This document shows, one piece after another, positions 3,601 to 21,675 of a stretch of 64,000 nt of DNA. The notes under the pieces were generated by a model. The model ran no database searches. It was not told where the DNA came from and was given only the letters and a program-made list of their open reading frames with translations. A program made the position numbers and the translations under genes. The stretch lies in assembly GCA_964016885.1 (NCBI GenBank), contig OZ024742.1, positions 229,276,001 to 229,340,000 on the forward strand, read 5' to 3'. Position 1 is the first letter of the stretch, and every line of letters begins with the position of its first letter. The DNA comes from Eledone cirrhosa. Its lineage: Eukaryota.

Positions 3601-3770
3601 AGATCTGAGATCAGACTGTCGTTCCAAGTAGATCCGCTACATTTCCGGAACGAGTGATCATAGCTCCGATATTACAAGTATGTGGTTAGAATGTCTCATG
3701 AAGAAGGAGGAAGAAGTAGAAGAAGAAGAAGAAGGAGAAGGAGAAGGAGAAGGAGAATAATAATAAAAAT

Positions 3771-4765
3771 AGGTCTTATCAGCATAGAGGACTGTGTTCA
3801 GATGGAAAAAAACAACCTACACAAATACGTGACTGGTGTAAGGAGCCAATGCTCAGAACTGTACTGAAGGAGGGGACAATAAGCCAGGGGATGTCCAAGG
3901 AGGAAATAACATCAAGGAGAAAGAGCAGCCTTCAGGAAAAATCCCTTCATAGTACCTTCTTTGAGAAAACTGAATTTACAGATCCACAGACATGGAACTG
4001 GTTGAGAAGAGGAGACCTTAAAAAGGCTACAGAAGTAATGTTAATGGCTGCGCAGGAGCAGGCCCTCAAAACGAAGTGGTTGAAACACCATATTTACAAG
4101 GAGGAGGCTAGCCCACTGTGCAGGATCTGTGGAGAGAGAGAGGAGACTGTGGCTCACATTGTATCCGAGTGTAGACACCTAGCCCAGACCCACTATAAGG
4201 GCTGGAGACATGATGTGATGGGCAGGGTGATCCACTGGCACCTGTGCAAAGTAAACAATTTACCACATTCTGAGAACTGGTATGAGCATAAGCCAGAGGC
4301 AGTGATGGAGAACAATCAGGTGAAGGTGCTGTGGGATTTTAGGATACAGACGGACAAGAAACTGGAACACAATAGACCTGACCTGGTGGTTGTGGATAAA
4401 GAAAAAAGATCGTGTCTGATTGTGGATGTGGCCTGCCCATTCGACACGAGAGTGCAAGAGAAGGAGAGGGAGAAAATTAACCGATACCAGGACTTAAAGT
4501 GGGAGGTAAAAAGGATTTGGAACTGCCATGAAGTCAAAGTGATCCCGATTGTCATAGGCGCACTGGGGACTATCTCCAAAAGTTTCCAGGGATGGTTAAA
4601 GAAAATCGGCCCCTTCACGCTTTTTGGAACGATTCAAAATGCATGCTTGCTGGGAACAGCAAGAACCCTCCGATACGTCCTGAATATCTGAGGCTGCAGG
4701 TAGTGGCTTGATATTCATTCCAACGGACTTTCCAGTTAACTAACATCAATGACTGAGATTCAAGG
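3771..4765 (+). mobile_element. 5'-truncated R4/Dong-type RLE retrotransposon, copy 1
   Basis: Near-identical to ~14700-15694; ORF 3849-4691 has CRICG..H....C knuckle, RHD and PD..D endonuclease motifs; flanked by (AAT)n. Confidence 0.93.
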
Positions 4766-4797
4766 AATAATAAAATAATAATAATAATAATAATAAT

Positions 4798-5493
4798 AAC
4801 GAAGTGGTTGAAACACCATATTTACAAGGAAGAGGCTAGCCCACTGTGCAGGATCTGTGGAGAGAGAGAGGAGACTGTGGCTCACATTGTATCCGAGTGT
4901 AAACACCTAGCCCAGACCCACTATAAGGGCTGGAGACATGATGTGATGGGCAGGGTGATCCACTGGCACCTGTGCAAAGTAAACAATTTACCACATTCTG
5001 AGAAGTGGTATGAGCATAAGCCAGAGGCGGTGATAGAGAACGATCAGGTGAAGGTGCTGTGGGATTTTAGGATACAGACGGACAAGAAACTGGAACACAA
5101 TAGACCTGACCTGCTGGTTGTGGACAAAGAAAAAAGATCGTGCCTGATTGTGGATGTGGCCTGCCCATTCGACACGAGAGTGCAAGAGAAGGAGAGGGAG
5201 AAAATTAACCGATACCAGGACTTAAAGTGGGAGGTAAAAAGGATTTGGAACTGCCATGAAGTCAAAGTGATCCCGATTGTCATAGGCGCACTAGGGACTA
5301 TCTCCAAAAGTTTCCAGGGATGGTTAAAGAAAATCGGCCCCTTCACGCTTTTTGGAACGCTTCAAAAGGCATGCTTGCTGGGAACAGCAAGAACCCTCCG
5401 ATACGTCCTGAATATCTGAGGCTGCAGGTAGTGGCTTGATATTCATTCCAACGGACATTCCAGTTAACTAACATCAATGACTGAGACTCAAGA
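4798..5493 (+). mobile_element. 5'-truncated R4/Dong-type RLE retrotransposon, copy 2
   Basis: Near-identical to ~14999-15694; begins in the (AAT)n tail of copy 1 and ends in (AAT)n. Confidence 0.93.
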
Positions 5494-5502
5494 TGTAATA
5501 AC

Positions 5503-5539
<37 letters not shown>

Positions 5540-5781
5540 TTTTCTATATTAACCACAAGGGTTCACATAAAGTAGACATTAAGGACAGTACAGGACAATA
5601 CAGGACGGTACAAATGGGCATTTCTGCGTGTAAAAAAACAGAGGTTGAAATAAAATAACAAAGAAAAATTCCCCAATAGGGGGGAGACTTCCAAGGGACA
5701 TTTGTGGAGAAAGCCCATTAAAAGACCACAGTGGCCCTGACCACCAGGGCAAGTGCCCTCTCCCAGTTTTCCACCTTTAAT

Positions 5782-7705
5782 TTACAGACACATACTCAGA
5801 GAAGGCCCATTCATTCGGGCCATACTTGCTTCTCTCACCCATCTTTCAACAAAATGCTGGGAAGAGAGCACTTCCCTCTCTACCCTGATTTTCCTTTTCA
5901 AATGAAATTTGAAAAAGTTAATCAGGGCATCACCGAAGAGGTAAGTGCTCGTCTTCAGCCCTTTCAAACGTGTCCACCATACTATCTCTTTCGCCATGGC
6001 CACCAGACAGATAAAAACTGCCTGCCCTTCCAGGCTAAAGGAAGGGGGCGGGGCAATCCTCACGATGGACTCAGCTGATAGCTGGATCCGTCCTACACGT
6101 GACAGCAGGTCTTCGACATAAACCCACAAGTCAGCAATGCTCGGACACTGGACGAGTGCGTGCAGGACGGTTTCGTCGCCCTGCGCGCATTTCGGACATG
6201 CCCGGCTGACGGCCCCTCCATGCCTGTAGGAATTCTCCCGTTCTGTTGCCAGTTGCAGTAGACGTCCGCCAAGAGGCCTCCGAACAAGTTTGGCATTTGT
6301 ACGTAAAGTTCATAGGGCAGACCATCCAAACCAGGCGATTTACCCCTTGTGCAACTAGTCATTGCATCCCGTACTTCAGCGGTTGTTATCGGCTTTTCGC
6401 AACACTCCGCCTCAGTGGCCGAAAGCCGCGGCAGTCCGTCGAGATAGACACTAAAGTCCATCCCTCGATCCGGCCCGCCACTGCCCCCGAACAGTTGAGC
6501 GAAGTGTCGCTGAAAAGCTTCACACATTTGCCCGGGATCGAGTAGCATGCGCCCGTCGTGGTCCACCAAAGACCGGATCGTGGCTTTGTTGCCACGACGC
6601 GCCTCCGCCACTCGGGCCCATTGAACGGCTTTCGTCCCCTCGTGTCTGAGAGCACGCACCCTAGCTCTGACAACGCAGCCTTCGTGCTTTGCATTGAAGA
6701 ATTGGTCAAGGGCCAATTTCGCCGCAAGTACGTCGGTCGCGATGCCTTTGCTAAGCGCCTCATCTAATTTTCTAACTAATTCTCCCTCTGCTCTATTTTT
6801 CTCTATTGCTAAAGTCTTACTAAACCTAATGGACTCTATTCTAATTGCTCTTTTCAGAGCAAACCACCACTTGTTGTTGACGATGGCCCCCGTCAACGCC
6901 CGCTTAACTAGTTCGCTAATCCGGTCTCTGTAGACCTTGCGCGCTGGTAAGGACGCGTTTAGCTTCCAGTAGCCGGGTCCTCGTCTATGAAGCCTATCTA
7001 AGTCAAGCACACAGATCACGAATTTGTGGTCCGTGTAGCTGACTATCTTGAATTGTGGACAGCCTATGCTAGACCTATCTATTTGCCTACAAAATACTCT
7101 ATCTAGATATGATCTGGATGACCCTATGCGATTTGTCCAAGTCCACAGTGGTACATTCGGGAAATCCATTCGGTACCTGTCAGACAGTTCAAAACGTCTG
7201 AGCAGGTTGGTGAGACTCTTGCACCCTCCTTCCCTATCCACTAATCCCACACAATCCCAGCGTGCATCTAAGATCCCGTTCCAGTCGCCCACTAACACTA
7301 AAGAGCGGGACGTTCCAAGAAAGGTCTCCAGACGCCGGAAGAAATCAGGCCGCCCTGCTCCTGTCGGGGCATAGACGGCCACTAACCTGAAAGCTTGCCC
7401 GTCTCCGCTGGTCACGTCCAGCACCACCAACTTACCTTCTGGGTCCAGGAAGATGGCCCGTATGGCAAGATCCAAACCTCTCCGAAAAAGCACAGCAACT
7501 CCTCCCCCGATCCCGGACGGCTGGGAAATGCGTACACATCGTAGCCGCCGAAGATCGGTGCGAAAGCCTGTGCCTCGGAGATTCTGGTCTCGCTGATGGC
7601 CACTACATCTATGTTTAGTGACCTGAGGTCGTTGAGCAGGTGGCCCTGCTTCCATGACGACCCCAAGCCACGCGCATTTATGCTGCCTATTCTGAGTGAG
7701 GTCAT
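5782..7705 (-). pseudogene. Tx1-A ORF2 (endonuclease and C-terminus only)
   Basis: SINARGL, ISET, GDWN, SYLD, TDH, KSPGLDG motifs; frameshift near 7505; jumps to the CCHC C-terminal region at ~6230. Confidence 0.9.
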
Positions 7706-7739
7706 GTTGAAAAGGAGTGGAAAAGATGGGAAAGACCAC

Positions 7740-9718
7740 TTACCTTACTTCTTGTAGGGGAAGGACGGTTTTTCCATCCGTTTCACTGCTTGTGGCCTCC
7801 TCAGGAAGGATGTCCTTATAAATCCTCCTGGAGAGTGCTTGTCGGAAGTCTCCGATGTCTTTGGGGAATTTTTGTTTTAGTGTCATGCGAGTGATTTGTA
7901 TGTGTGGAGGTGGTGTGAATTTTGGGGTTGTTGTGTAGTCTTTTTCTGTGATGCTGGTGTTGTGTTGGATGTAGTGTAATAATTGCTTGTTGTTCAAATT
8001 TAATGCTGTGTAGTGTGTATCGTTTTGGTTGTTTTGTTTTGTTTGCGTTTGTTGTGGGTTTGTTTCTGTTTCGCATTTTGGTGACTTTTGTGGTGTAGGT
8101 GATGGTGGTGCTGGGGTTAATGATGGTGATGGTGTTGGTGTTTGGGTTGATGGGGTTGGTGATGCTGGTGTGGATGGTGGCATATCTGTCCTAACTTTTT
8201 TGTTTCTTAATTTATTTGTTTCCCTCTGTATTTTGTTTTTGGAGGGGGAAGGAAGAGAATTTTTTTTTTTTTTTTTTTTCCGGATATCGTTTCCCACTCC
8301 TCGTCGTCACAATGTGTCTCCAGTTGTGATAGGCCGGGGAGTGGAAAATCCCCCACGGCCGTTAGTTTTGGTTGTGGTGTGGTGGATGGTGTAGGCGCTG
8401 GTGCTAGTTCTGAAGCGTTGGGTGGTGGTGGTGTTGGTTTTGCTGGTGGTGGTAGTGGTGTTGGTTTTGCTACTGTTGCTGGGGTTGTTGCTGTTATAGT
8501 TGCTTCTGTTGTTGCTGCTACACTTGTTGCTGCCATCTCTGCTACTGGTGGTGTTGATGGTTGTGTCACTGGGGTGGGTAGGAGAGGTGGCCTCAACCTT
8601 TTAACCTGAGGGCAGAAAGCCCTTAGGTGGGTTCCTTCACCACAAACGACACACCTAGGTCTTCTGCCCTCGACAATTACCGTGAGGTGGCTGCCGTCAG
8701 TGAGGTCTATTACCTCTGGGACCTCCTCAATGCTTTTTTGGTCCGCCTGGATCAGGAGCTCCATCCCAGATCCGGACCAGTTTTCCTGCTTTTCCTTTGC
8801 TATTGCTATTATTTTCGTGTTGGCTTAGATGCCGGCGAGGACAGCCGCTATTAGCCAGGGAATTTCGATGGCCGGTGGAACGTGGGTCACCTTGATCTTT
8901 ACGAGTCTCTGGCCACAATAGCTTGGGACGAGTGTGAAGTCGTCACTTTTTAATGGGGCCATGGAGTGTTCTCTAGCCTCCTCTGGTGTTTCAAAGAACA
9001 CATCCACGGTTCCATACTTTTGCCCACGTCTGATGTGGGTTTTTCTTGCCCACACATGTCCCAAAGCTTTTTGGATTTGGGACTCGGATGCCCGTTCCAC
9101 TCGGCGCGATTTTACATTTATTGTTCTATACGACACGGTGCATAGGCGCCGATGCTCCATTTTATTAGGTGGGGTGGGGGGGGGGGGGGGGGGGTGAGGC
9201 TGACCCTGTACCCATCTTTCTTTACCATTTGTTTGGCATTTTCTAAATCTTCCTGAGTTACCGTAAAAGCTTCGAATTGTTTTGCTACTCTGGCGAAACT
9301 GAGGGGGGGGGGGGGTTATAATGTCATTGTTGTTGTTGTTGCTATCGTTAATATTAATTTTTGTTTCAGTTGTGGTGGTGGTGACGTCAGTCGTCTTTGG
9401 TGGGGAAGAGTCCATTTTGCTTGATTTCATTTCGACATCACGAGTTAATTTATTTTTTTCTTCTTTTGTTTCTGTTGTCGCGGTGGTGGTGGTGGTGGTA
9501 GTTGTCGCGGTGGTGGTGGTGGTGGAGGCTTTAACACCTGCAGTCATTGGTAATGGCGGGAAATGAATGTCTGCCTGAGACAAATTTAAAATATTGCTAG
9601 TGCTTATATATTTTTTTGTGTTGGCAAACGTAGTAACATTTACAATGGTGGTGTCGGTGTGAGGTGTTAATTTGTGAGGAAGGCTTTCAGCTGCTTCGTG
9701 CAGAGGTGAATTAGCCAT
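7740..9718 (-). pseudogene. Tx1-A ORF1 (gag-like), disrupted
   Basis: ORF pieces 8825-9727, 8207-8764, 7740-8297; knuckle CVVCGEGTHLRAFC; core aligns to ORF1 of copy B. Confidence 0.85.
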
Positions 9719-9926
9719 TTTTTTCAAAGAAATTTTTTTGATAATAATAAAAGTTTAAATTTTGGGCACAAGGCCCCAATCTTTTTGGGTGTCCTTTTCG
9801 GAAAACAATGTATGTGCGCTTATAAACAGTTAACAATAAAATTTTCCATAAATGACAATTTTTAACAAACGGAAATAACAAACCTTTGCGGAGCTCACGA
9901 TGATACGATTTACTACGTAGGTCGCC

Positions 9927-9970
<44 letters not shown>

Positions 9971-9971
<1 letters not shown>

Positions 9972-10156
9972 TGTTATTTCTTTAGGCACAAGGCCAGCAA
10001 TTATCCAGTGCATTACTGGTACTTTATTTTATCGACCCCGTAAGGATGAAAGGCAAAGTCAACCTCGGCGGGTTTTGAACTCAGACCGTAAAGGGACGTA
10101 ACTATGCTGGAAAGCATGGCGCCCGACCCTCTACCGATACTGCCAATCCACCGCCT

Positions 10157-10157
<1 letters not shown>
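9971..10157 (-). mobile_element. tRNA-derived SINE family 1 (Nin/Deu-like core)
   Basis: A-box tggcagtatcgg, B-box gagttcaaaacc, core gcctttcatccttacggggtcgataaaataaagtaccag resembling the Deu/Nin domain as I recall it, (ATT)n tail; many copies in the window. Confidence 0.88.
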
Positions 10158-10190
<33 letters not shown>

Positions 10191-10370
10191 GACGCACGGA
10201 ATAAGGGAAGAAGACGCACGAGGTGACGGAGGTCATGAAATCGCTCCCGTAAGTTTTGAATTTTTAACATATTTAAATCATTTGTGAAATAACAACTCTT
10301 AGTACAAATGCTACGTAAAGCACCCGGCTTGAGCCCCAAAAAAATTCGGACCCAAAATATATTGTTATAA

Positions 10371-11656
10371 GGCTCAAATATTCAAATATTCAACTTTGTA
10401 TTGTACACTGTATATCCAAAAAAAAATGGCTATAAATGGAAGAAGAAGAACCCCCCCCCCTCCTCTCCTCTGGCTACACTATATAGGACAGCTAAACTCA
10501 CCAACACCAGAAACTAGATACACCACCCACCCCATCATCTGTGTACACTAAACACAACAGCATTTTCACCTTCACCGCCACCGCTCACTACGGCCATCAT
10601 TACCACCACTATCCCATCACCGCCGCCACCACCCCTTGACTCCTTCACTGCTGCTGCCACCGCTACAGCACCATCACTACAGTAATACGGCTCAAATATT
10701 CAAATATTCAACTTTGTATTGTACACTGTATATCCCCCAAAAAAATAAAATGGCTATAAATGGAAGAAGAAGAACCCCCCCCTCCTCTCCTCTGGCTACA
10801 CTATATAGGACAGCGAAACTCACCAACACCAGAAACTAGATACACCACCCACCCCATCATCTGTGTACACTAAACACAACAGCATTTTCACCTTCACCGC
10901 CACCGCTCACTACGGCCATCATTACCACCACTATCCCATCACCGCCGCCACCACCCCTTGACTCCTTCACTGCTGCTGCCACCGCTACAGCACCATCACT
11001 ACAGTAATACGGCTCAAATATTCAAATATTCAACTTTGTATTGTACACTGTATATCCCCCCAAAAAATAAAATGGCTATAAATGGAAGAAGAAGAACCCC
11101 CCCTCCTCTCCTCTGGCTACACTATATAGGACAGCGAAACTCACCAACACCAGAAACTAGATACACCACCCACCCCATCATCTGTGTACACTAAACACAA
11201 CAGCATTTTCACCTTCACCGCCACCGCTCACTACGGCCATCATTACCACCACTATCCCATCACCGCCGCCACCACCCCTTGACTCCTTCACTGCTGCTGC
11301 CACCGCTACAGCACCATCACTACAGTAATACGGCTCAAATATTCAAATATTCAACTTTGTATTGTACACTGTATATCCAAAAAAAAAATAAAATGGCTAT
11401 AAATGGAAGAAGAAGAACCCCCCCCCCCTCCTCTCCTCTGGCTACACTATATAGGACAGCGAAACTCACCAACACCAGAAACTAGATACACCACCCACCC
11501 CATCATCTGTGTACACTAAACACAACAGCATTTTCACCTTCACCGCCACCGCTCACTACGGCCATCATTACCACCACTATCCCATCACCGCCGCCTCCAC
11601 CCCCTGACTCCTTCACTGCTGCTGCCACCGCTACAGCACCATCACTACAGTAATAC
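10371..11656 (+). repeat. Four tandem ~320-bp units upstream of the Dong ORF
   Basis: Units start ggctcaaatattcaaatattc at 10371, 10689, 11011 and 11332; differences are almost all homopolymer lengths. Confidence 0.97.
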
Positions 11657-12227
11657 GGTCGCATCACCGCCACCACTGCCTCGGTATCGACATCACCACC
11701 ACCACTGTCTCAGTATCGCCAACGCCGCCAGTCTCTGCTGGCTACCACTTCCACATTATAGAATTCCTACTACTAACAAAGAGGAAGGCATCAAAATATA
11801 TAGATAGACTCAAAAGAAAAAAGAAAAAACAAACAACAAAAGCAGCACAGCAACAACAGTAAAAAACGAGAAAAACAGAGAAAAACAAAAACAAAAAAAG
11901 AAACCCCAAAAACGTAAAGAAAATAAGAATGAAGAGAGAAGCAGGCGGACGGACAGAGAAGAGGGGGGGAAAAGTAAAACTTAAAAAACAAAAACTAAGT
12001 CAGACATTCGAATACTACATTACAATGAAACTTATGCTTATTCATTTTTGGGGCCCTTTCTGCCCGTGTGTTTGTTTGTTTATGTGTGTCCGTATACAGC
12101 GTGGTGATAATGCCACACAAGGGCCAAGTGGGATGGCGGATCCACAGATGGCTATGTAAACATACATTCGCCAATCCTCGATAAGAGTGTTTAAATATCG
12201 AACATAAACAGTTCGAATAACGGTGAA

Positions 12228-15200
12228 ATGGAGACTAGAACGTCATGTGACAGACTCTCACCCAACAGGTGCCCCCTGGCTCAGCAGCAGGAACCTGACT
12301 GTCAACCAAATACTGCTGATGTTGGAGGAAGAAGAAGAAGGAAAGGGGCCAGAACCAACTGGACGAAAGAATTGAATAGAACTGTTATGCAATGCTACCT
12401 GAAAAGTAACCCCAAGGAGAGGGGCTACAGGAGACGGATGCATAACATCTGGAACGAGATTGGTTTATTTAAATTAGATGAACAAAAATTGGCCGGGCAG
12501 GCTCGGGTAATAAGAACTAATGGGTGGATAAGCGAGCTGGAACTGGAGGAACTGAGCAGAGAGAATGGCTTGGAGATGGCGGGTGTAGTATGCCAGACAA
12601 GCGAGCCGGCGGGAAATGAAGGTGAGGAGGTCCTGAGAACGGAGGAACCACCCGAAGCAGACAATGATCTGAATACTGAGATAAATAATACCTGGAACAG
12701 AGATACGGCCACTGAGGAGATGAATGCTGACGGGCTAGGACAAGATTCGGTTGACATCCTAAATTTAGTGGTAGATGAGTTGAACAATGATAGTGGGAGA
12801 CCTATGAACCTAAGATTTGTAGACAGGAAAAAGTTAAAAGAAACAACAGCTAAGGTAAACAAAGTCATCCCATACCTTGAGGCGAGGAGTCTTCACCAGT
12901 GCAACAATATCCTCAAAGCAACAGCAAATACGGTGAGGAAACTACTTGGTATAAAAGCGAGAGGAAACAACAGACAAGAAAGAGCAGAGCCGTGGTGGAA
13001 GAAGCGACTGAGTGGGCAAATCGGGGAAATGAGAAATGACATAGGAAAGCTTGAGTCACTACTGAATGGGACACTAAAAAACATAGGCACTAAAAATAGA
13101 CTGGAAATAAAATACAAAACTAGGAGTAAAAAGCTAAATATTATCATAGAGGAATTGAAGCAACGCATTGTAGCAAAGAGTGCCAAAATCAGGCGATACG
13201 AGAACAGAGTCAGTCAGTATAAACAGAACCGCATGTTCGACAACAACCAGAAGATGCTGTTTGGACAGCTTGAGGGGAAAGAAAGAGGCAACGACTTGAT
13301 CCCTGGGGCGGAACAAGCTAAAACATTCTGGAGAGGAATATGGGAGCAGGATGTTAGACACAATGCCCAGGCAGGGTGGATTGAGACAGTACAGAGGGAG
13401 ATCGGTGAGCAGGCACAGCAACAGACTGATTTGAGTATCACAGTTGAAACTCTTAAGGGGCAAGCCAAAAAACTAACCAACTGGAAATCACCAGGCCCAG
13501 ATGGTGTGCAGGGGTATTGGATTAAACATTTAACATCCCTCCACCCGAAGCTGACGGCCATGTTCAATGACTGCTTGGTGTCGGGTGAGGTGCCAGAGTG
13601 GTTGACAAAAGGTACCACAGTTCTGATAATGAAAGACCGAATCAAGGGTAATGATGTTACCAACTATAGACCTATCACATGTCTGCCCGTAATGTGGAAA
13701 CTGTTGACGAGCATTGTGTCTGAGGAAATCTACCATCACCTCCACACAAACAACTTGTTGCCGGACGAACAGAAAGGATGCCGAAAGAAGTCACGTGGTA
13801 CAAAGGACCAGTTGCTTATTGATAAGATGGTAATGGGGAATTGCAGGAAGAGACACACTGATCTTGCCATGGGATGGATAGACTACAGAAAGGCATTTGA
13901 CATGGTGCCTCATTCCTGGATCACCAAAAGCCTGGAGATCTTCAGGGTGGCAGATAACATCCGACAGTTGCTGGGCAGGAGTATGGGGTCCTGGGAGACA
14001 GAGTTGACATCAACTGGAGTATCCTTGGGAAGCGTGAAGATCAAGAGAGGTATCTTCCAGGGAGATAGCCTGTCCCCTCTGTTGTTTGTCCTTGCCCTGA
14101 TGCCCTTGACCATTATGGTGCGAAAAGTGAGAGCAGGATACAAGTTGGGAAGGGGAGAGCTTACCATCAATCACCTTCTCTTCATGGACGATCTTAAGCT
14201 CTTCGGGAAAAGTGAGAAGGAGTTGGATGTGCTTGTTGACACTGTCCGTATTTTCAGCAGTGATATATGTATGCAGTTTGGTATTGGTAAATGTGGAGTC
14301 ATTGTGATGAGGAGGGGTAGGTTGAGCAGAAGTAACGGGATCCAGATACCAACAGGTGAGATGATAAAGGAAATTGACTCTGAGGAAGGATACAAGTATT
14401 TGGGCGTTCTGGAGGCTGATGGCATAAAGAACAAAAAAATGAAGGAATTGTTAAGAACTGAATACATTCGGAGAGTAAGGAGCGTATTGAAGTCACATCT
14501 GAACAGCAGAAATGCCATAAGCGCAGTAAATTCCCGAGCTGTGTCTATTATTAGGTACAGTGCGGGAATTCTGAGATGGAATGTTGCTGAACAAAAAGAA
14601 ATGGATAGGAAGACTAGGAAGCTATTGACTATCTACAACATGTTCCACAAGAGGAGTGATGTCGATAGACTCTACCTAAGGAGATCTGATGGTGGAAGAG
14701 GTCTTATCAGCATAGAGGACTGTGTTCAGATGGAGAAAAACAACCTATACAAATACGTGACCTATAGTAAGGAGCCAATGCTCAGAGCTGTACTGAAGGA
14801 GGGGACAGTAGGCCAGGGGATACCCAAGGAGGAAATAACATCAAGGAGGAAGAGCAGCCTTAAGGGAAAATCCCTTCATAGTACCTTCTTTGAGAAAACT
14901 GAATTTAGAGATCCACAGACATGGAACTGGTTGAGAAGAGGAGACCTCAAAAAGGCTACAGAAGGAATGCTAATGGCTGCGCAGGAGCAGGCCCTCAAAA
15001 CGAAGTGGTTGAAGCACCATATCTACAAGGATGAGGCTAGCCCACTGTGCAGGATCTGTGGAGAAAGAGAGGAGACTGTGGCTCACATTGTGTCCGAGTG
15101 TAAACACCTAGCCCAGACCCACTATAAGGGCTGGAGACACGATGTGATGGGCAGGGTGATCCACTGGCACCTGTGCAAAGTAAACAATCTACCACATTCT

Positions 15201-15620
15201 GAGAAATGGTATGAGCATAGGCCAGAGGCGGTGATGGAGAACAGTCAGGTGAAGGTGCTGTGGGATTTTAGGATACAGACGGACAAAAAACTGGAACACA
15301 ATAGACCTGACCTGCTGGTTGTGGACAAAGAAAAAAGATCGTGCCTGATTGTGGATGTGGCCTGCCCGTTCGACACGAGAGTGCAAGAGAAGGAGAGGGA
15401 GAAAATTAACCGATACCAGGACCTAAAGTGGGAGGTGAAAAGGATTTGGAACTGCCATGAAGTCAAAGTGATCCCGATTGTCATAGGCGCACTGGGGACT
15501 ATCTCCAAAGGTTTCCAGGGATGGTTAAAGAAAATCGGCCCCTTCACGCTTTTTGGAACGCTTCAAAAGGCATGCTTGCTTGGAACGGCAAGAACCCTCC
15601 GATACGTCCTGAATATCTGA
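12228..15620 (+). CDS. Reverse transcriptase / restriction-like endonuclease polyprotein (R4/Dong clade), 1130 aa
   Basis: Uninterrupted ORF: Myb-like WTKELN..., KSPGPDG, NYRPITCL, QGDSLSP, LFMDD, KYLG, CCHC knuckle, RHD, PD..D...EK..Y. Confidence 0.96.
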   Translation: METRTSCDRLSPNRCPLAQQQEPDCQPNTADVGGRRRRKGARTNWTKELNRTVMQCYLKSNPKERGYRRRMHNIWNEIGLFKLDEQKLAGQARVIRTNGWISELELEELSRENGLEMAGVVCQTSEPAGNEGEEVLRTEEPPEADNDLNTEINNTWNRDTATEEMNADGLGQDSVDILNLVVDELNNDSGRPMNLRFVDRKKLKETTAKVNKVIPYLEARSLHQCNNILKATANTVRKLLGIKARGNNRQERAEPWWKKRLSGQIGEMRNDIGKLESLLNGTLKNIGTKNRLEIKYKTRSKKLNIIIEELKQRIVAKSAKIRRYENRVSQYKQNRMFDNNQKMLFGQLEGKERGNDLIPGAEQAKTFWRGIWEQDVRHNAQAGWIETVQREIGEQAQQQTDLSITVETLKGQAKKLTNWKSPGPDGVQGYWIKHLTSLHPKLTAMFNDCLVSGEVPEWLTKGTTVLIMKDRIKGNDVTNYRPITCLPVMWKLLTSIVSEEIYHHLHTNNLLPDEQKGCRKKSRGTKDQLLIDKMVMGNCRKRHTDLAMGWIDYRKAFDMVPHSWITKSLEIFRVADNIRQLLGRSMGSWETELTSTGVSLGSVKIKRGIFQGDSLSPLLFVLALMPLTIMVRKVRAGYKLGRGELTINHLLFMDDLKLFGKSEKELDVLVDTVRIFSSDICMQFGIGKCGVIVMRRGRLSRSNGIQIPTGEMIKEIDSEEGYKYLGVLEADGIKNKKMKELLRTEYIRRVRSVLKSHLNSRNAISAVNSRAVSIIRYSAGILRWNVAEQKEMDRKTRKLLTIYNMFHKRSDVDRLYLRRSDGGRGLISIEDCVQMEKNNLYKYVTYSKEPMLRAVLKEGTVGQGIPKEEITSRRKSSLKGKSLHSTFFEKTEFRDPQTWNWLRRGDLKKATEGMLMAAQEQALKTKWLKHHIYKDEASPLCRICGEREETVAHIVSECKHLAQTHYKGWRHDVMGRVIHWHLCKVNNLPHSEKWYEHRPEAVMENSQVKVLWDFRIQTDKKLEHNRPDLLVVDKEKRSCLIVDVACPFDTRVQEKEREKINRYQDLKWEVKRIWNCHEVKVIPIVIGALGTISKGFQGWLKKIGPFTLFGTLQKACLLGTARTLRYVLNI

Positions 15621-15971
15621 GGCTGCAGGTAGTGGCTTGATATTCAATCCAACGGACTTTCCAGTTAACCTACATCAATGACTGAGATTCAAGGAATAAC
15701 AATAACAATAATAATAATAATGATTTCTTTATTAACCACAAGGGTTTACATAAAGTAGACATTAAGGAGAGTGCAGGACAATACAGGACGGTACAAATGG
15801 GCATTTCTGCGTGTAAAAAACAAAAACAGAGGATGTAACAAAAAATAACAATGAAAAATTCCCCAATAGGGGGGAGACTTCGGAGGGACATTTGTGGAGA
15901 AAGCCCAGTAAAAGGCCACAATGACCCTGACCACCAAGGTAAGTGCCCTCTCCCAGTTTTCCACCTTTAAT

Positions 15972-18900
15972 TTACAGATATATACTCAGAGTAGGCCCAT
16001 TCACTCGGGCCATTCTTGCTTCTCTCACCCATCTTCCCTCTCTACTCTGATTTTCCTTTTCAAAAGAAATTTGAAAAAGTCAATCAGAGCATCACCGAAG
16101 AGGTAAGTGCTCGTCTTCAGCCCTTACAAACGTGTCCACCATACTATCTCTTTCGCCATGGCCACCAGACAGATAAAAACTGCCTGCCCTTCCCGGCTAA
16201 AGGAGGAGGGCGAGGCAATCCTCACGATGGACTCAGATGATAGCCGGATCCGTCCTAAACGCGACAGCAGGTGTTCGACATAAACCCACAAGTCAGCAAT
16301 TTTCGGACACTGGAAGAGTGCGTGCAGGACGGTTTCGTCGCCCTGCGCGCATCTCGGACATGCCCGGCTGACGGCACCTCCATGCCTGTAGAGTTTATCC
16401 CGAACTGGCAAGGCTCCTCGGTAGCACTGCCAGGCCAGAGATTTCTGGAAGTTGTCCATAGGCCCTGGCACGAAAATTCTTCCGAAGAGATTGGCTAGTT
16501 GATTTTCGTCGACGCCTAGAGTTTCTCCAAGTACGTCGTCGCTCTTCCCCTCCACTAATCCTCTATAGAACGCCGAGGTGTAGTTTTCACCGATCACATT
16601 GCCCGATTGGTCGAGGGCTGTGAGCGCCTGAAGACATTCCAGTCTCCAGGCGCTCCCTCTCGGTCTTCGCTTGACCCAGGACTGCAGCTCCGTCAAGGAA
16701 ACGAGCTGGGGAAATACGTGTCTAGTAAACGGCGACCACACCTGATCACCGTCGAGGAAGAGGTGGAGATGTCGTAGCCTGAGCGCGTGCCTGCGCATCA
16801 TCAGCCACGGCATGCCCAGCCCTCCACGTAGCGGGTGTTGACAACAGATGGACCACCTGACCATCGGAGCGCGTCCCTTCCACAAAAAGCGAATAGCAAA
16901 CGCTCCAGCGCAGTCAGGCGAGGCTTAGGACAAGGTACGACGGTCAGGCGGTAGCAGATGACAGACGCGATGTACGCGTTAGCCACCTCCGCTCGACCTT
17001 TCAGGGATAGCTTCCTCTCCGCCCATTTCTGGGTGAGAGAAGCCACCCTGCTCGTCACCTCGTCCCAGTTTTTGTCCGTCTGGAGGTCCGGACCGAACCA
17101 GACCCCTAGCAATTTAACCGGTCCGTCCGTCCAGCGTCCGACGACGCTGTTGGACGGCATGGACCTGCCTCTCCAGGTGCCGAGCTGCAGGCCCACTGAC
17201 TTTTCCTGGTTGATCATTGCTCCTGTCACCGCTTCGTATTCTCTTAGTGTAGTGCCGATCGCCTCGATGTGTTTGGCGTTCGACACCACTACGGTGAGAT
17301 CGTCCGCATATGCTGACACGGATCTTCCACATCCTAGTTCGCGCGGGACGCCCCTCAACGTCTCTAGTTTGTGCAGTAATGGCTCGAGAGTCAATACGTA
17401 CAAGAGGGACGAGAGGGGACATCCTTGGCGGACTGAGCGCATGATGTTGAACGGTTCCGACAGGTGACCGTTCACTCTCACCACAGAGCAGATGTCGCTG
17501 TGCATGGCAGCGATCCAGCCTCTGAAGACGGGCCCAAAGCCAGCCGCCCTCAGGACTGCCGCTAGGTTACGATGGTCGACCCTATCGAAAGCTTTCGACT
17601 GATCTAAATTGATCAAGGACCGACCCGTGCCAGGTTCCCTAGCTACTCTCTCTACGATGTATCGCATGAGGTGGAGGTTGTCGTGGATGGATCTGTCGGG
17701 AATGGCGCATGTCTGCGCCTCTCCCACCAGACCACCAACGACAAGCGCCAACCTCTTTGCTAGCACCTTGGCCAAAATCTTGAACTCTGTGTTTAGCAGA
17801 GTTATGGGCCTGAAATTATCTATGTTTCCTCCTTGTTCGGATCCTTTCTCAGCAGTGCCACCGCTCCTCGGCTCACAGAGCTGGGAATTCTCCCGTTCTG
17901 TTGCCAGTTGCAGTAGACGTCCGCCAAGAGGCCTCCGAACAAGTCTGGCATCTGTACGTAAAGTTCTTAGGGCAGACTATCCAAACCAGGTGATTTACCA
18001 CTTGTGCAGCCAGTCATTGCCTCCCGTACTTCAGCGGCTGTTATCGGCTTTTCGCAACACTCCGCCTCAGTGGCCGAGAGCCGCGGCAGTCCGTCGAGGT
18101 AGACACTAAAGTCCATCCCTCGACCCGGCTCACCGCTGCCCCCGAACAGCTGAGCGAGTGTCGCTGAAAAGCTTCACACATTTTCCCGGGATCGAGTAGC
18201 ATGCGCCCGTCGTGGTCCACCAAAGACCGGATTGTGGCTTTGTTGCCACGACGCGCCTCCGCCACTCGGGCCCATTGAACGGCTTTCGTCCCCTCGTGTC
18301 TGAGAGCACGCACCCTTGCTCTGACAACGCAGCCTTTGTGCTTTGCATGAAGAATTGGTCAAGGGCCAATTTCGCTGAAAGCACGTCGGTCGCAATGCCT
18401 TTGCTAAGCGCCTCGTCTAATTTTCTAACTAGTTCTCCCTCTGCTCTATTTTTCTCTATTGCTAAAGCCTTACTAAACCTAATGGATTCTATTCTAATCG
18501 CTCTTTTCAGAGCAAACCACCACTTGTTGTTGACGATGGCCCCCGTCAACGCCCGCTTAACTAGTTCGCTAATCCGGTCTCTGTAGGCCTTGCGCGCTGG
18601 TAAGGACGCGTTTAGCTTCCAGTAGCCGGGTCCTCGTCTATGAAGCCTATCTAAGTCAAGCACACAGATCACGAATTTGTGGTCCGTGTAGCTGACTATC
18701 TTGAATTGTGGACAGCCTATGCTAGACCTATCTATTTCCCTACAAAATACTCTATCTAGATATGATCTGGATGACCCTATGCGATTTGTCCAAGTCCAGA
18801 TTGGCACATTCGGGAAATCCAATCGGTACCTGTCAGGCAGTTCAAAACGCCTGAGCAGGTTGGTGAGGCTCTTGCACCCTCCACCCCTATCCGCTAATCC

Positions 18901-19326
18901 CACACAGTCCCAGCGTGCATCTAAGATCCCGTTCCAAGAAAGGTCTCCAGACGCCGGAAGAAATCAGGCCGCCCTGCTCCTGTCGGGGCATAGACGGCCA
19001 CTAGCCTGAAAGCTTGCCCGTCTCCGCTGGTCACGTCCAGCACCACCAGCTTACCCTCTGGGTCCAGGAAGATGGCCCGTATGGCGAGATCCAAACCTCT
19101 CCGAAAAAGCACAGCAACTCCATCCCCCCGATCCAGGACGGCTGGGAGATGCGTACACATCGTAGCCGCCGAAGATCGGTGCGAAGGCCCGTGCTTCGGA
19201 GATTCTGGTCTCGCTGATGGCCACAACATCTATGTTTAGTGACCTGAGGTCGTTGTGCAGGTGACCCTGCTTCCATGACGACCCCAAGCCACGCGCATTT
19301 ATGCTGCCTATTCTGAGTGAGGTCAT
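15972..19326 (-). pseudogene. Tx1-B ORF2 (APE endonuclease + RT + CCHC), frameshifted
   Basis: Pieces carry SINARGL, TDH, DQSKAFDRV, VRQGCPLS, AYADD and CPRC..ETVLHALFQC; several indels. Confidence 0.93.
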
Positions 19327-19465
19327 GTTTAAAATAGAGTGGAAAAGATGGGAAAGACCACTTACCGTACTTTTCGTAGAGGAGGGATGGTTTTTACATC
19401 CCTTTTCACTTGATCGTCTGGTGAAGGGACCGTTGAATCGTCCCTTCGGCTGGTCGTCGGCTCTT

Positions 19466-21457
19466 CTATGAGTATGTCCGAATATACTCTTCGATTGTAG
19501 TTCCTTCTAGGTCCCTGAAATCACCAACTGCGTTGGGGAATTTCGTTTTAATGTTTGTGTATTGTTTCTGTGCTATTTTTAGCAGTCTTATGTTAGTTGG
19601 CGTTTTGATTGGTGCTGGTATTATGTAGTCGTGTTGTGAAATGTCTGTGTGTTCAATTATGTAAGTCATTAGTTTCTTGTTGTGTGTATTTATTGCCGTG
19701 CATTCGTTTTTCTGGGGGTGGGGTGTGGTTCTGCTATTTTCTTGTCGTTGTTGCTGGGTGTGTGTGTTTTGTTGTTGTGTTTGCGATGTTGGTGCTTGTG
19801 GTGGTGGTGTTGAAGGTGTTGTTGGCGGTGGGGTTTTCGCCGGTGGTGATGGTGGTGCTAGTGTGGGTGGTGATGGTGTTGGTGGTGTTGCTGCTGTGAG
19901 TCTCTTTGCAGTAGACTTTACCCTTTTCTCATTTCTTTCCTCCCTTTTCAAAGGCGACGATGCGCTGCTTCTGCGTTTGTGCCTTCTTACGACCTTTTGC
20001 CATCCCTCTCCCACCTCATACTCCATGTCTGATTCTGTGAGGTCGGGGAGGCGTACCAGACCCACTCTTTCACTTGTTGTTGTTGGTGATGTTTGCACTG
20101 GAGTCTCTGTTGCAGCTGCATTTGGTATTGCTGTTGTTGTTGTTAATATTTCCACTGCTGCTGCTGTTTTTGATTTCCGTGGCGTGGGTGCCACGGACCT
20201 ATCGTTCCTGGTTGCCGCTTGTCCTGTTGCTGGTAGCCGTGGAGCCGGTTTCGGAAGGAGGGGGGTTTTCTCCTTTCTCCGGGTCTTCTCGTTGCAGAAG
20301 GCCCTGAGGTGAGTCTTCGATCCACAGCGAAAGCATTTCGGGCGTTTGCCCTCAACACTTATGGGCAGTTGAGTGCCGTTATCGAAGTCTATCACATCCG
20401 GGATAGCTTCGATGCACTCCTGGTTGGTTTGGATTAACATCTCAATGGAGGTGGCGACCCAATCTTCTCTTACTTTTTTCTGTACTTGCAGTACAGTTGT
20501 TTTGTCCTCGATTCCGACGAGGACAGACGCGGCCAGCCAAGAAGGGGCCATCCCGGGGGGGACGTGGGTCAGTTTGACCCTCACAATTTTTTGCCCGCAG
20601 TAGGAGGGCACCAACGCCATTTCCTCGCTCCTTAGGGTCACTACGGATTGAGCCTTTGCCTCCTGGGGTGTGGCAAAAAGTATGTCTACTGTGGCATATT
20701 TTTTGCCTCGGGTGATGTGCGTTTTCCGCTGCCACACAGACCCCAAGGCTTTTTGTATTTGAGCCTCTGTGGCTCTTTCAACCCTACGGGATTTTGTACT
20801 TACTGTACGGTACGTGACCGTACAGTGCTGTTGGGTTTCGAAAAAATTTTCCGCTACCTTGCAGATTGCTCGGTGTCCAGTCTTTGTCACCATCTTCTTC
20901 GCTTCCTCTAATTCCTCATTTGTTATGAGGATTGTTTCCCGGTTCTTCGCGATACCTGCAAACGAGATTGGTTTTTCTTTGCTGCTGTTGTTGTTGTTGT
21001 CGTCATAGCTGCTGTTACTTTTGTTGTTGCTGCAGGTACTACGACTACTGCCTCCGCCGCTGTTGCTGTGGTTGTTGTTGGTGTTGCTGCTGCTAATGCT
21101 GTTGTTGTTTATGCTGCTGGTGATGCTGTTGCGGCTGCTACTGTTGTTTTCATTGTCACTGTTGCTGTTGTTATTACGGCTGCTACTGCTATTATTCCTG
21201 ACGTCAGACGAATGAAATGGGTTTTCGTATTTCCCGCACACCTGTTTCATCGTTGTCGTCGTCGTCGTGGAGAAATCTTGCACGCTTTGCACGAGACTTT
21301 TCTTTTCTGTCGTCGCTTGCGAAAGAGAAGGGAGGGAGAGAGACACATTTAAAGAAGGGAGGGAGAGAGACCATCTTCTCTCTGCTGAAGTGATGATTGA
21401 GGAAGAAGAAGAAGGAATGAGTGGGAGTGACCTATGAAAATTCTTTTTCGTAGCCAT
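19466..21457 (-). CDS. Tx1-B ORF1, gag-like nucleic-acid-binding protein
   Basis: Open from ATG at 21457; Asn/Ser-rich N-terminus, central domain shared with A, knuckle CFRCGSKTHLRAFC, Pro/Thr-rich tail. Confidence 0.88.
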   Translation of the reverse strand: MATKKNFHRSLPLIPSSSSSIITSAERRWSLSLPSLNVSLSLPSLSQATTEKKSLVQSVQDFSTTTTTTMKQVCGKYENPFHSSDVRNNSSSSRNNNSNSDNENNSSSRNSITSSINNNSISSSNTNNNHSNSGGGSSRSTCSNNKSNSSYDDNNNNSSKEKPISFAGIAKNRETILITNEELEEAKKMVTKTGHRAICKVAENFFETQQHCTVTYRTVSTKSRRVERATEAQIQKALGSVWQRKTHITRGKKYATVDILFATPQEAKAQSVVTLRSEEMALVPSYCGQKIVRVKLTHVPPGMAPSWLAASVLVGIEDKTTVLQVQKKVREDWVATSIEMLIQTNQECIEAIPDVIDFDNGTQLPISVEGKRPKCFRCGSKTHLRAFCNEKTRRKEKTPLLPKPAPRLPATGQAATRNDRSVAPTPRKSKTAAAVEILTTTTAIPNAAATETPVQTSPTTTSERVGLVRLPDLTESDMEYEVGEGWQKVVRRHKRRSSASSPLKREERNEKRVKSTAKRLTAATPPTPSPPTLAPPSPPAKTPPPTTPSTPPPQAPTSQTQQQNTHTQQQRQENSRTTPHPQKNECTAINTHNKKLMTYIIEHTDISQHDYIIPAPIKTPTNIRLLKIAQKQYTNIKTKFPNAVGDFRDLEGTTIEEYIRTYS

Positions 21458-21675
21458 GTTGTTTTTTTTTTGTTTAAAATAAATATTGGGCACAAAACCC
21501 CAATAAGCAGTTATTTAACCCCGAAGGGCCAAATAACGGGCAGAAAGACCCCTCTCACGAGGAGGAGGGTGTTTTTGTCGTCAAGTTCGTTAAAGTTTTA
21601 AACAATTTACAATTGTTATAGCGTTCAAAATTTACAATACCTTACAGAGCCGAGCCTCCGTCAACCATAGCATTC

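Follow-up and report, generated by a model that had tools for sequence, protein, structure and literature searches.

Retrotransposons of the R4/Dong clade are described as having a single open reading frame (ORF), with a reverse transcriptase (RT) and a C-terminal restriction-like endonuclease (RLE), and as using (TAA)n as their target (PMC7998251, PMC3812793). Bombyx Dong, DongAg, DongBg and the ostracod Dong have this organization, and so does the Dong element described here, which lies in a stretch of DNA of 64,000 nucleotides (the window). Bombyx Dong and Ascaris R4 cleave at their 5' junction by means of HDV-like ribozymes (PMC3774820), whereas our searches at the 5' end of the window element found none. 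No other recently active LINE group of Octopus vulgaris is as numerous as Dong-R4, with 5 families and 1,129 near-full-length insertions that occupy 4.73 Mb (PMC13282606). These average 4.19 kb per insertion, not far from the 4.54 kb of the window element counted with one unit of its repeat array; with all four units it measures 5.50 kb. Octopus Dong is also mentioned in PMC8967140 and PMC9115989; in the accessible text of these two sources, as in that of PMC13282606, its 5' end is not described.

Other LINE clades already provide examples of long 5' untranslated regions (UTRs) that bear repeats, and of 5' UTR replacement. In L1, such replacement and internal tandem duplication are both common (PMC5381506). 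Mouse L1 (A, Tf, Gf) resembles the window Dong in having tandem units of a few hundred bases, variable in number and followed by a tether. However, mouse L1 is of the APE type and its CpG-rich monomers carry the initiation signals (PMC5381506), whereas the array in the window is internal and CpG-poor. In the L1 elements of horse, elephant, hyrax and opossum, two to three tandem duplications sit within a long 5' UTR behind a unique head (PMC5381506), although the units measure about 70-100 bp and the clade is not that of Dong. FoTeR/MoTeR elements share with the window Dong an RLE and a simple-repeat target, and their 5' UTRs of 492-3,366 nt are rich in variable-number tandem repeats (PMC12857005); they belong to another clade and host, and the repeat units searched for in that source were of 6-100 bp only. 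L1 5' UTRs with internal duplications behind a unique head, and the 5' UTRs of FoTeR, are closer counterparts than mouse L1. SLACS and CZAR carry a 185-bp 5' repeat. The accessible part of PMC4169256 does not describe it. For Dong itself, a search of the open literature turned up neither long leaders nor leaders with tandem repeats; octopus repeat libraries may already contain the consensus of this element.

The window contains an intact Dong in an AAT microsatellite (Table 1), with a 2-kb leader that related genomes share. On sequence grounds, we propose that the unique head of this leader is likely to be an internal promoter that replaces the self-cutting RNA of other Dongs, and that the unit of the array is likely to be a variable-number repeat rather than the start of the copied RNA. 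We would give this reading as a whole an even chance.

Table 1. Features of the Dong element and its leader (positions in the window).
Feature	Position	Strand	Remarks
(AAT)11 target tract, 5' side	10158..10190	.	TRF and sequence
Unique 5' head, 180 nt	10191..10370	+	CpG o/e 1.47, GC 39%; less folded than shuffles
Short motif shared with both Tx1-like 5' UTRs	10243..10254	+	By eye, post hoc; contains GTRAG 10249
Unit 1, 318 nt	10371..10688	+	ATG 10426, TATAAATG 10431, TATATAG 10480
Unit 2, 322 nt	10689..11010	+
Unit 3, 321 nt	11011..11331	+
Unit 4, 325 nt	11332..11656	+	Two private substitutions near 3' end
Tether, first part	11657..12048	+	C/A-rich low-complexity stretch, then A-rich tract ~11811-11999
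Pre-ORF segment	12049..12227	+	T-rich tract to CAG at 12099, then three hairpins 12120-12219
ORF, intact, 1,130 aa	12228..15620	+	RT aa 476-727, FMDD; CCHC C941-C958; RHD; PD..D..E..K endonuclease motif
Short 3' UTR (~75 nt) and AAT-type tail	15621..15721	+

The full-length element has (AAT)n on both sides. Its ORF matches RVT_1 (E 6e-23) and has R2 proteins as its best PDB matches; for an APE domain, Exo_endo_phos gave no match. Residues C941, C944, H953 and C958, the RHD, P1027-D1028, D1043, E1056 and K1059 are invariant in 18/18 aligned proteins, and the N-terminus shows a conserved helical block (W45, C56, S60, R70, W75) in the same alignment. In the R4/Dong clade, a Myb/SANT-like domain that lacks zinc fingers is expected there; Pfam Myb had no match in any of the 18 members. 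A single-sequence model of the N-terminus of the window protein has four helices and matches generic bundles alone (best Z 7.4), with the Myb family absent from the fold-search matches listed. The window also has two 5'-truncated Dong copies (95.4% and 96.4% identity), and all three young copies within the window start after, and finish in, AAT tracts. As far as the sequence tells, domain layout and AAT target fit the published description of R4/Dong. The surroundings (3768-21675) are a train of insertions with AAT tracts between its members: two Dong 3' fragments (plus strand), a Tx1-like element (minus), a SINE (minus), the full Dong (plus) and another Tx1-like element (minus), Dong and Tx1-like elements being on opposite strands.

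The leader (10191-12227; 2,037 nt) follows directly on the (AAT)11 tract and leads up to the intact ORF. It is made up of the 180-nt head, four units of about 320 nt and a 571-nt tether, and even with one unit it would measure 1,069 nt, as against 99-525 nt in 16 relatives. No (AAT)n run occurs between head and ORF, and BLAST of the leader against the rest of the window gave no match beyond itself. At the extreme 5' end there is a 9-nt direct repeat (10190-10198 and 10212-10220). A preliminary description of this DNA had noted an A-rich tract ahead of the ORF, which is indeed there, and a hairpin-rich segment after it. The latter holds for 12120-12219, which folds with a z of -2.6 (3/29 windows fall below -2.3), but not for the segment as a whole, as 12030-12235 is unremarkable against shuffles (z -0.61).

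According to TRF, the array (10367-11658) comprises 4.0 copies of a period of 322 nt, at 97% matches. The array is not terminal, since 180 unique nucleotides (10191-10370) precede unit 1. The units vary at 14/325 alignment columns, of which 11 lie in or beside an A/C run and a C run, so the four near-identical units of about 320 bp, differing mostly in homopolymer length, were correctly described at the outset. The other three columns are point substitutions: a T/G difference at column 130 that sets unit 1 apart, and two that occur in unit 4 alone. In units 2 and 3, column 130 has the allele of unit 4, and columns 265 and 273 have those of unit 1. Duplication of the middle of a two-unit ancestor would leave just this pattern. 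We infer that units 2 and 3 arose in this way, and unit number in general would change by slippage or unequal exchange.

Every unit contains TATAAATG, TATATAG and an ATG in the context AAAATGG, and a short ORF that starts with MAINGRRRTPP. The TATA-like boxes and the short ORF that had been attributed to each unit are thus present in all four. The ORFs run to 41, 29, 40 and 30 aa, as the frame past the C run varies; since this run changes the frame, we discarded the idea that the unit encodes a functional peptide. We also considered a retrozyme. The fold of the unit, no better than that of shuffles (z +0.60), counts against it, and no hammerhead core was found on either strand of the leader. 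A sense-strand AATAAA lies just ahead of the ATG in units 2-4 (10744, 11066, 11387) and is missing from unit 1; copies with more units may thereby gain premature poly(A) signals. Scans for the exact pattern of the unit returned nothing (0 in viral_contigs, 0 in genome_contigs), in collections that are not expected to contain animal repeats.

Parts of the leader occur in 16/20 listed sequencing runs, none of them recorded as RNA. For four of these runs (X1, X4, X6, X7), contigs were mapped on 9990-12989 and depth and contig tables were used, as the SINE upstream dominated the tables of joints and loose ends; the organisms behind them (A-D) may include the source of the window itself. Contigs of organisms A, B and C cover the head, the unit, the tether and the beginning of the ORF. 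Run X7 (organism D) has scattered cover and almost none on the leader. On the assumption of 31-mers, a tandem array like that in the window predicts graph forks at 10400, 10690, 11304 and 11629. X4 record 10 ends at 10400, the last entry-specific 31-mer, and X4 record 11 and X6 record 17 both end at 10690. X6 record 18 begins at 11304, the first junction-specific 31-mer, and X6 record 19 begins at 11629, the first exit-specific 31-mer, and extends to 12053; X6 record 21 (12024-12234) crosses the ORF ATG. X4 record 11 begins at 10494, one base past the T/G site. X6 record 18 has 28 letters to the left of the junction, under the 31-letter bridging rule; but the entry sequence would differ at 17 of these letters, and other letters number 8 over the whole record. 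No single contig among those listed spans the entire leader. The forks for entry, junction and exit are thus all seen in organisms B and C, both from a single study. Because contig ends fall on the predicted forks, the leader must be borne by the element family, and the tandem junction must exist outside this assembly. This upholds the view that the leader is part of the element family, its parts and the ORF start being covered in three organisms.

The same data bear on two further readings of the locus. The four units might be an assembly artefact of a single one, as most of their differences are homopolymer lengths and depth (see below) suggests few units on average. We consider this very improbable, because three substitutions are restricted to the terminal units, the adjoining 3.4-kb ORF has no frameshift, and the junction 31-mer fork recurs in runs of two organisms from another study. 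Alternatively, the leader could be a separate short element, or a Tx1 fragment, that happens to lie upstream of a Dong with a short native 5' UTR. The window is, after all, a train of insertions with AAT tracts between them, and in X1 depth rises about 2-3-fold from 12190 on, which points to many ORF copies without the leader. 5' truncation and the presence of other subfamilies would produce such a step too. Moreover, leader and ORF have no AAT tract between them, X6 contigs chain the array exit to the ATG, and the parts of the leader are at similar depth in three organisms. A separate element is accordingly quite improbable, though a little less so than an artefact.

Depth also speaks to the number of units, with the reservation that contig depth is not copy number and that all such estimates are a hint. 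Summed unit depth divided by head depth is 1.0 (X1), 1.36 (X4) and 1.09 (X6), where four units per copy would give about 4. At the X6 fork, the depths of junction (4.73) and exit (6.47) together come close to the stem depth of 10.9, which corresponds to about 1.7 units; in X4, contig depth in the junction bin is about 9, against 39 at the entry and 46 at the exit, or about 1.2 units. This hints at an average of about 1-1.7 units per leader in related genomes, not four, and most copies there are likely to carry one or two. The depths point to the unit being a variable-number repeat, with the four of the window at the high end. Head depth is 0.39 (X1), 0.6 (X4) and 0.5 (X6) of that of the 5' part of the ORF, and in all three well-covered runs the head and the remaining leader are about equally abundant. 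Relative to the neighbouring SINE, the Dong family is far commoner in organism A than in the other two; the contigs of B and C are nearly identical to the window. This contrast in abundance hints at a lineage-specific burst, with the reservation that depth is not copy number.

Does the window Dong, then, have a ribozyme at its 5' end, as Bombyx Dong has? Rfam on 9500-12600 found no ribozyme, only chance-level lncRNA and sRNA matches, and a custom HDV-like pattern, run without a positive control, had no match at the head. The head folds worse than 199/200 shuffles (z +1.93). A covariance model of the 5' motif of distant relatives (see below) had no match in the window, while it matched 4/25 further loci. 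Since neither ribozyme, HDV-like pattern nor relatives' motif was found and the fold is poor, the 5' end of the window Dong looks replaced. With the search for a 5' ribozyme fold negative, it is plausible that the element makes its own transcript.

A non-LTR element copies only what its RNA contains. Because head and remaining leader are about equally common, the start of the copied RNA must lie at or above 10191; an RNA started about 30 nt below the TATA box of a unit would lose the head and one promoter per cycle. RNA polymerase II would thus start at or near 10191 and include the head in the RNA. The RLE would then nick (AAT)n and the RT would copy the RNA by target-primed reverse transcription, as is established for the clade.

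The preliminary description had instead seen in the array a monomer promoter through which the element transcribes itself. In its strongest form, modelled on L1, each unit would be a TATA promoter or enhancer module and more units would mean more transcription. Each unit does have a perfect TATAWAWR with a pyrimidine-rich initiator-like site 29-33 nt below it, but the spacing between the two changes with the slipping C run, and the counts are borderline (one TATAWAWR per unit, P 0.054; two TATAWA, P 0.032). The unit also contains a YY1-like AANATGGC (P 0.028), its core as in the L1 literature (PMC5381506); motif P values range from 0.03 to 0.26 and are uncorrected for the 11 patterns tried. 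The unit junction is real in other organisms, and young mouse L1s are reported with 3-4 monomers (bioRxiv 2021.12.03.471143), yet the average unit number of this family is likely 1-1.7. By the usual thresholds, the unit is no CpG island (CpG o/e 0.54, GC 47%). The array lies inside the leader, behind a head that equals the rest of the leader in abundance. A polymerase III B box was found in neither head, unit nor tether. As a variant of the L1-like model, the array could drive a shorter mRNA while full-length RNA starts upstream. Of the original proposal, the part that concerns self-transcription keeps its footing in the family-borne leader, the real junction and the negative search for a 5' ribozyme fold, while the part that concerns monomers suffers from the internal array, the CpG-poor unit and the borderline TATA boxes. 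We regard an L1-like monomer promoter as unlikely, and as less likely than a head promoter followed by an internal variable repeat, although the units may still modulate the head promoter.

With 18 ATGs upstream of the ORF, the leader raises the question of how the protein is translated. Most of it could be an intron (10249 to 12099), such that unspliced RNA is copied and spliced RNA translated. The only GTRAG in the leader is a perfect GTAAGT at 10249 (P 0.045), the best acceptor-like site is at 12099, 128 nt ahead of the ORF ATG, and splicing between them would remove 13/18 upstream ATGs. These sites were drawn post hoc, however, and the score of the acceptor is equalled by about 8% of the comparable AG sites in the window (816 sites). 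The listed DNA contigs run unbroken across 10249 (X4) and 12099 (X4, X6, X7), and there are no spliced DNA copies among them. An intron, which we think has a small chance of being real, is compatible with a promoter in the head, and would leave unit number nearly free to drift.

If the 5' end was replaced, the two Tx1-like elements that flank Dong on the minus strand (5540-9926 and 15722-21675) are conceivable donors. Measured from (AAT)n up to an A-rich ATGGCT, their 5' UTRs are 208 and 218 nt long, and the head together with the start of unit 1 spans 235 nt to the same word. The likeness was first spotted by eye. In global alignments of the head with each of the Tx1-like UTRs, the score is reached by 2/1,000 dinucleotide shuffles, and by 28 and 6/1,000 block shuffles. 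The summed score of 211 for the head against both UTRs is reached by 0/2,165 ATG-anchored background segments, and 4/6,070 background windows tie or beat the head-UTR score when the A-run and ATG are trimmed. Trimmed single comparisons rank within the top 0.5-3%, the likeness between the two Tx1 UTRs being just as weak; other AT-rich segments of the window score as high on self-type controls, and the head is missed by a profile of the two Tx1 UTR sequences. Alignment of the head to the Tx1-like UTRs improves slightly when it starts at the second copy of the 9-nt repeat (10212-10220). A 12-nt word common to the pre-ORF segment (12056-12067) and the second Tx1-like 5' UTR (21536-21547) may be chance. 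A decayed Tx1 ORF1 in the leader found no support, since tblastx gave low-complexity matches only (best E 0.035); with blastp, leader translations matched 0/150 Tx1 ORF1 relatives, and a word-based search for such relatives found none.

From these alignments, it seems about as probable as not that the head was captured from the 5' UTR of a Tx1-like element sharing the AAT arrays. The two Tx1-like elements themselves are 89-93% identical over their 3' two thirds and 53-60% in the ORF1 core, with diverged 5' UTRs, a pattern that suggests a fast exchange of 5' parts. The fuller scenario, in which Dong swapped its ribozyme 5' end for a Tx1 polymerase II promoter and the old Tx1 start became the variable 320-nt repeat, possibly in a spliced intron, is rather doubtful, if somewhat less so than the L1-like model.

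Distant relatives show what other 5' ends look like. A metagenome scan yielded 79 Dong-relative loci with proteins about 31-55% identical, of which 34 have an ORF of at least 950 aa. A simple-repeat boundary lies upstream in 16 of these 34, and their leaders measure 99-525 nt. TRF upstream of the 34 ORFs found two arrays with a period of at least 15 (16 and 24 nt), and BLAST of the window leader matched none of the 79 loci. The 5' ends of the relatives are modular: some have tRNA-like heads, and in others (AAT)n is directly followed by a compact motif of interlocked helices. This motif is conserved, 60-75 nt long, lies mostly right after (AAT)n and can form five interlocking helices (L003:61-123, L004:84-153, L006:54-123, L008:72-131 and L009:56-112; further L018, L019, L020:653-718, L022, L026 and L033, and also L017, L028, L030 and L071). 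In our own five-helix drawing, made from the same sequences, 99% of cells are paired in 11 sequences and 2 pairs are changed on both sides. Rfam gave no match on the motif loci scanned. Judging by the modelled structure, the motif is a candidate for an undescribed self-cleaving RNA. The tRNA-like heads (L002:10-80, L007:24-95, L037:105-175 and L065:84-168, the last called by ARAGORN and Rfam, the other three by eye) suggest polymerase III promoter capture by autonomous elements. In addition, a module of about 28 nt occurs 2-5 times, interspersed, in the 5' UTRs of L004, L006, L030, L033 and L040 (by eye).

The transcription of RLE retrotransposons outside the rDNA is poorly known, and the one Dong that has been tested relies on its 5' ribozyme. 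A young and abundant Dong with an apparently replaced leader and a natural series of 1-4 units would offer a direct test of self-driven transcription and of the effects of unit number. Should the full scenario be true, a promoter would have been captured across the deepest split among LINEs, from an APE-type Tx1 to an RLE-type Dong, and a large burst of copies would have followed. If the head came from Tx1, shared microsatellite sites would be places where unrelated LINE clades trade regulatory ends.
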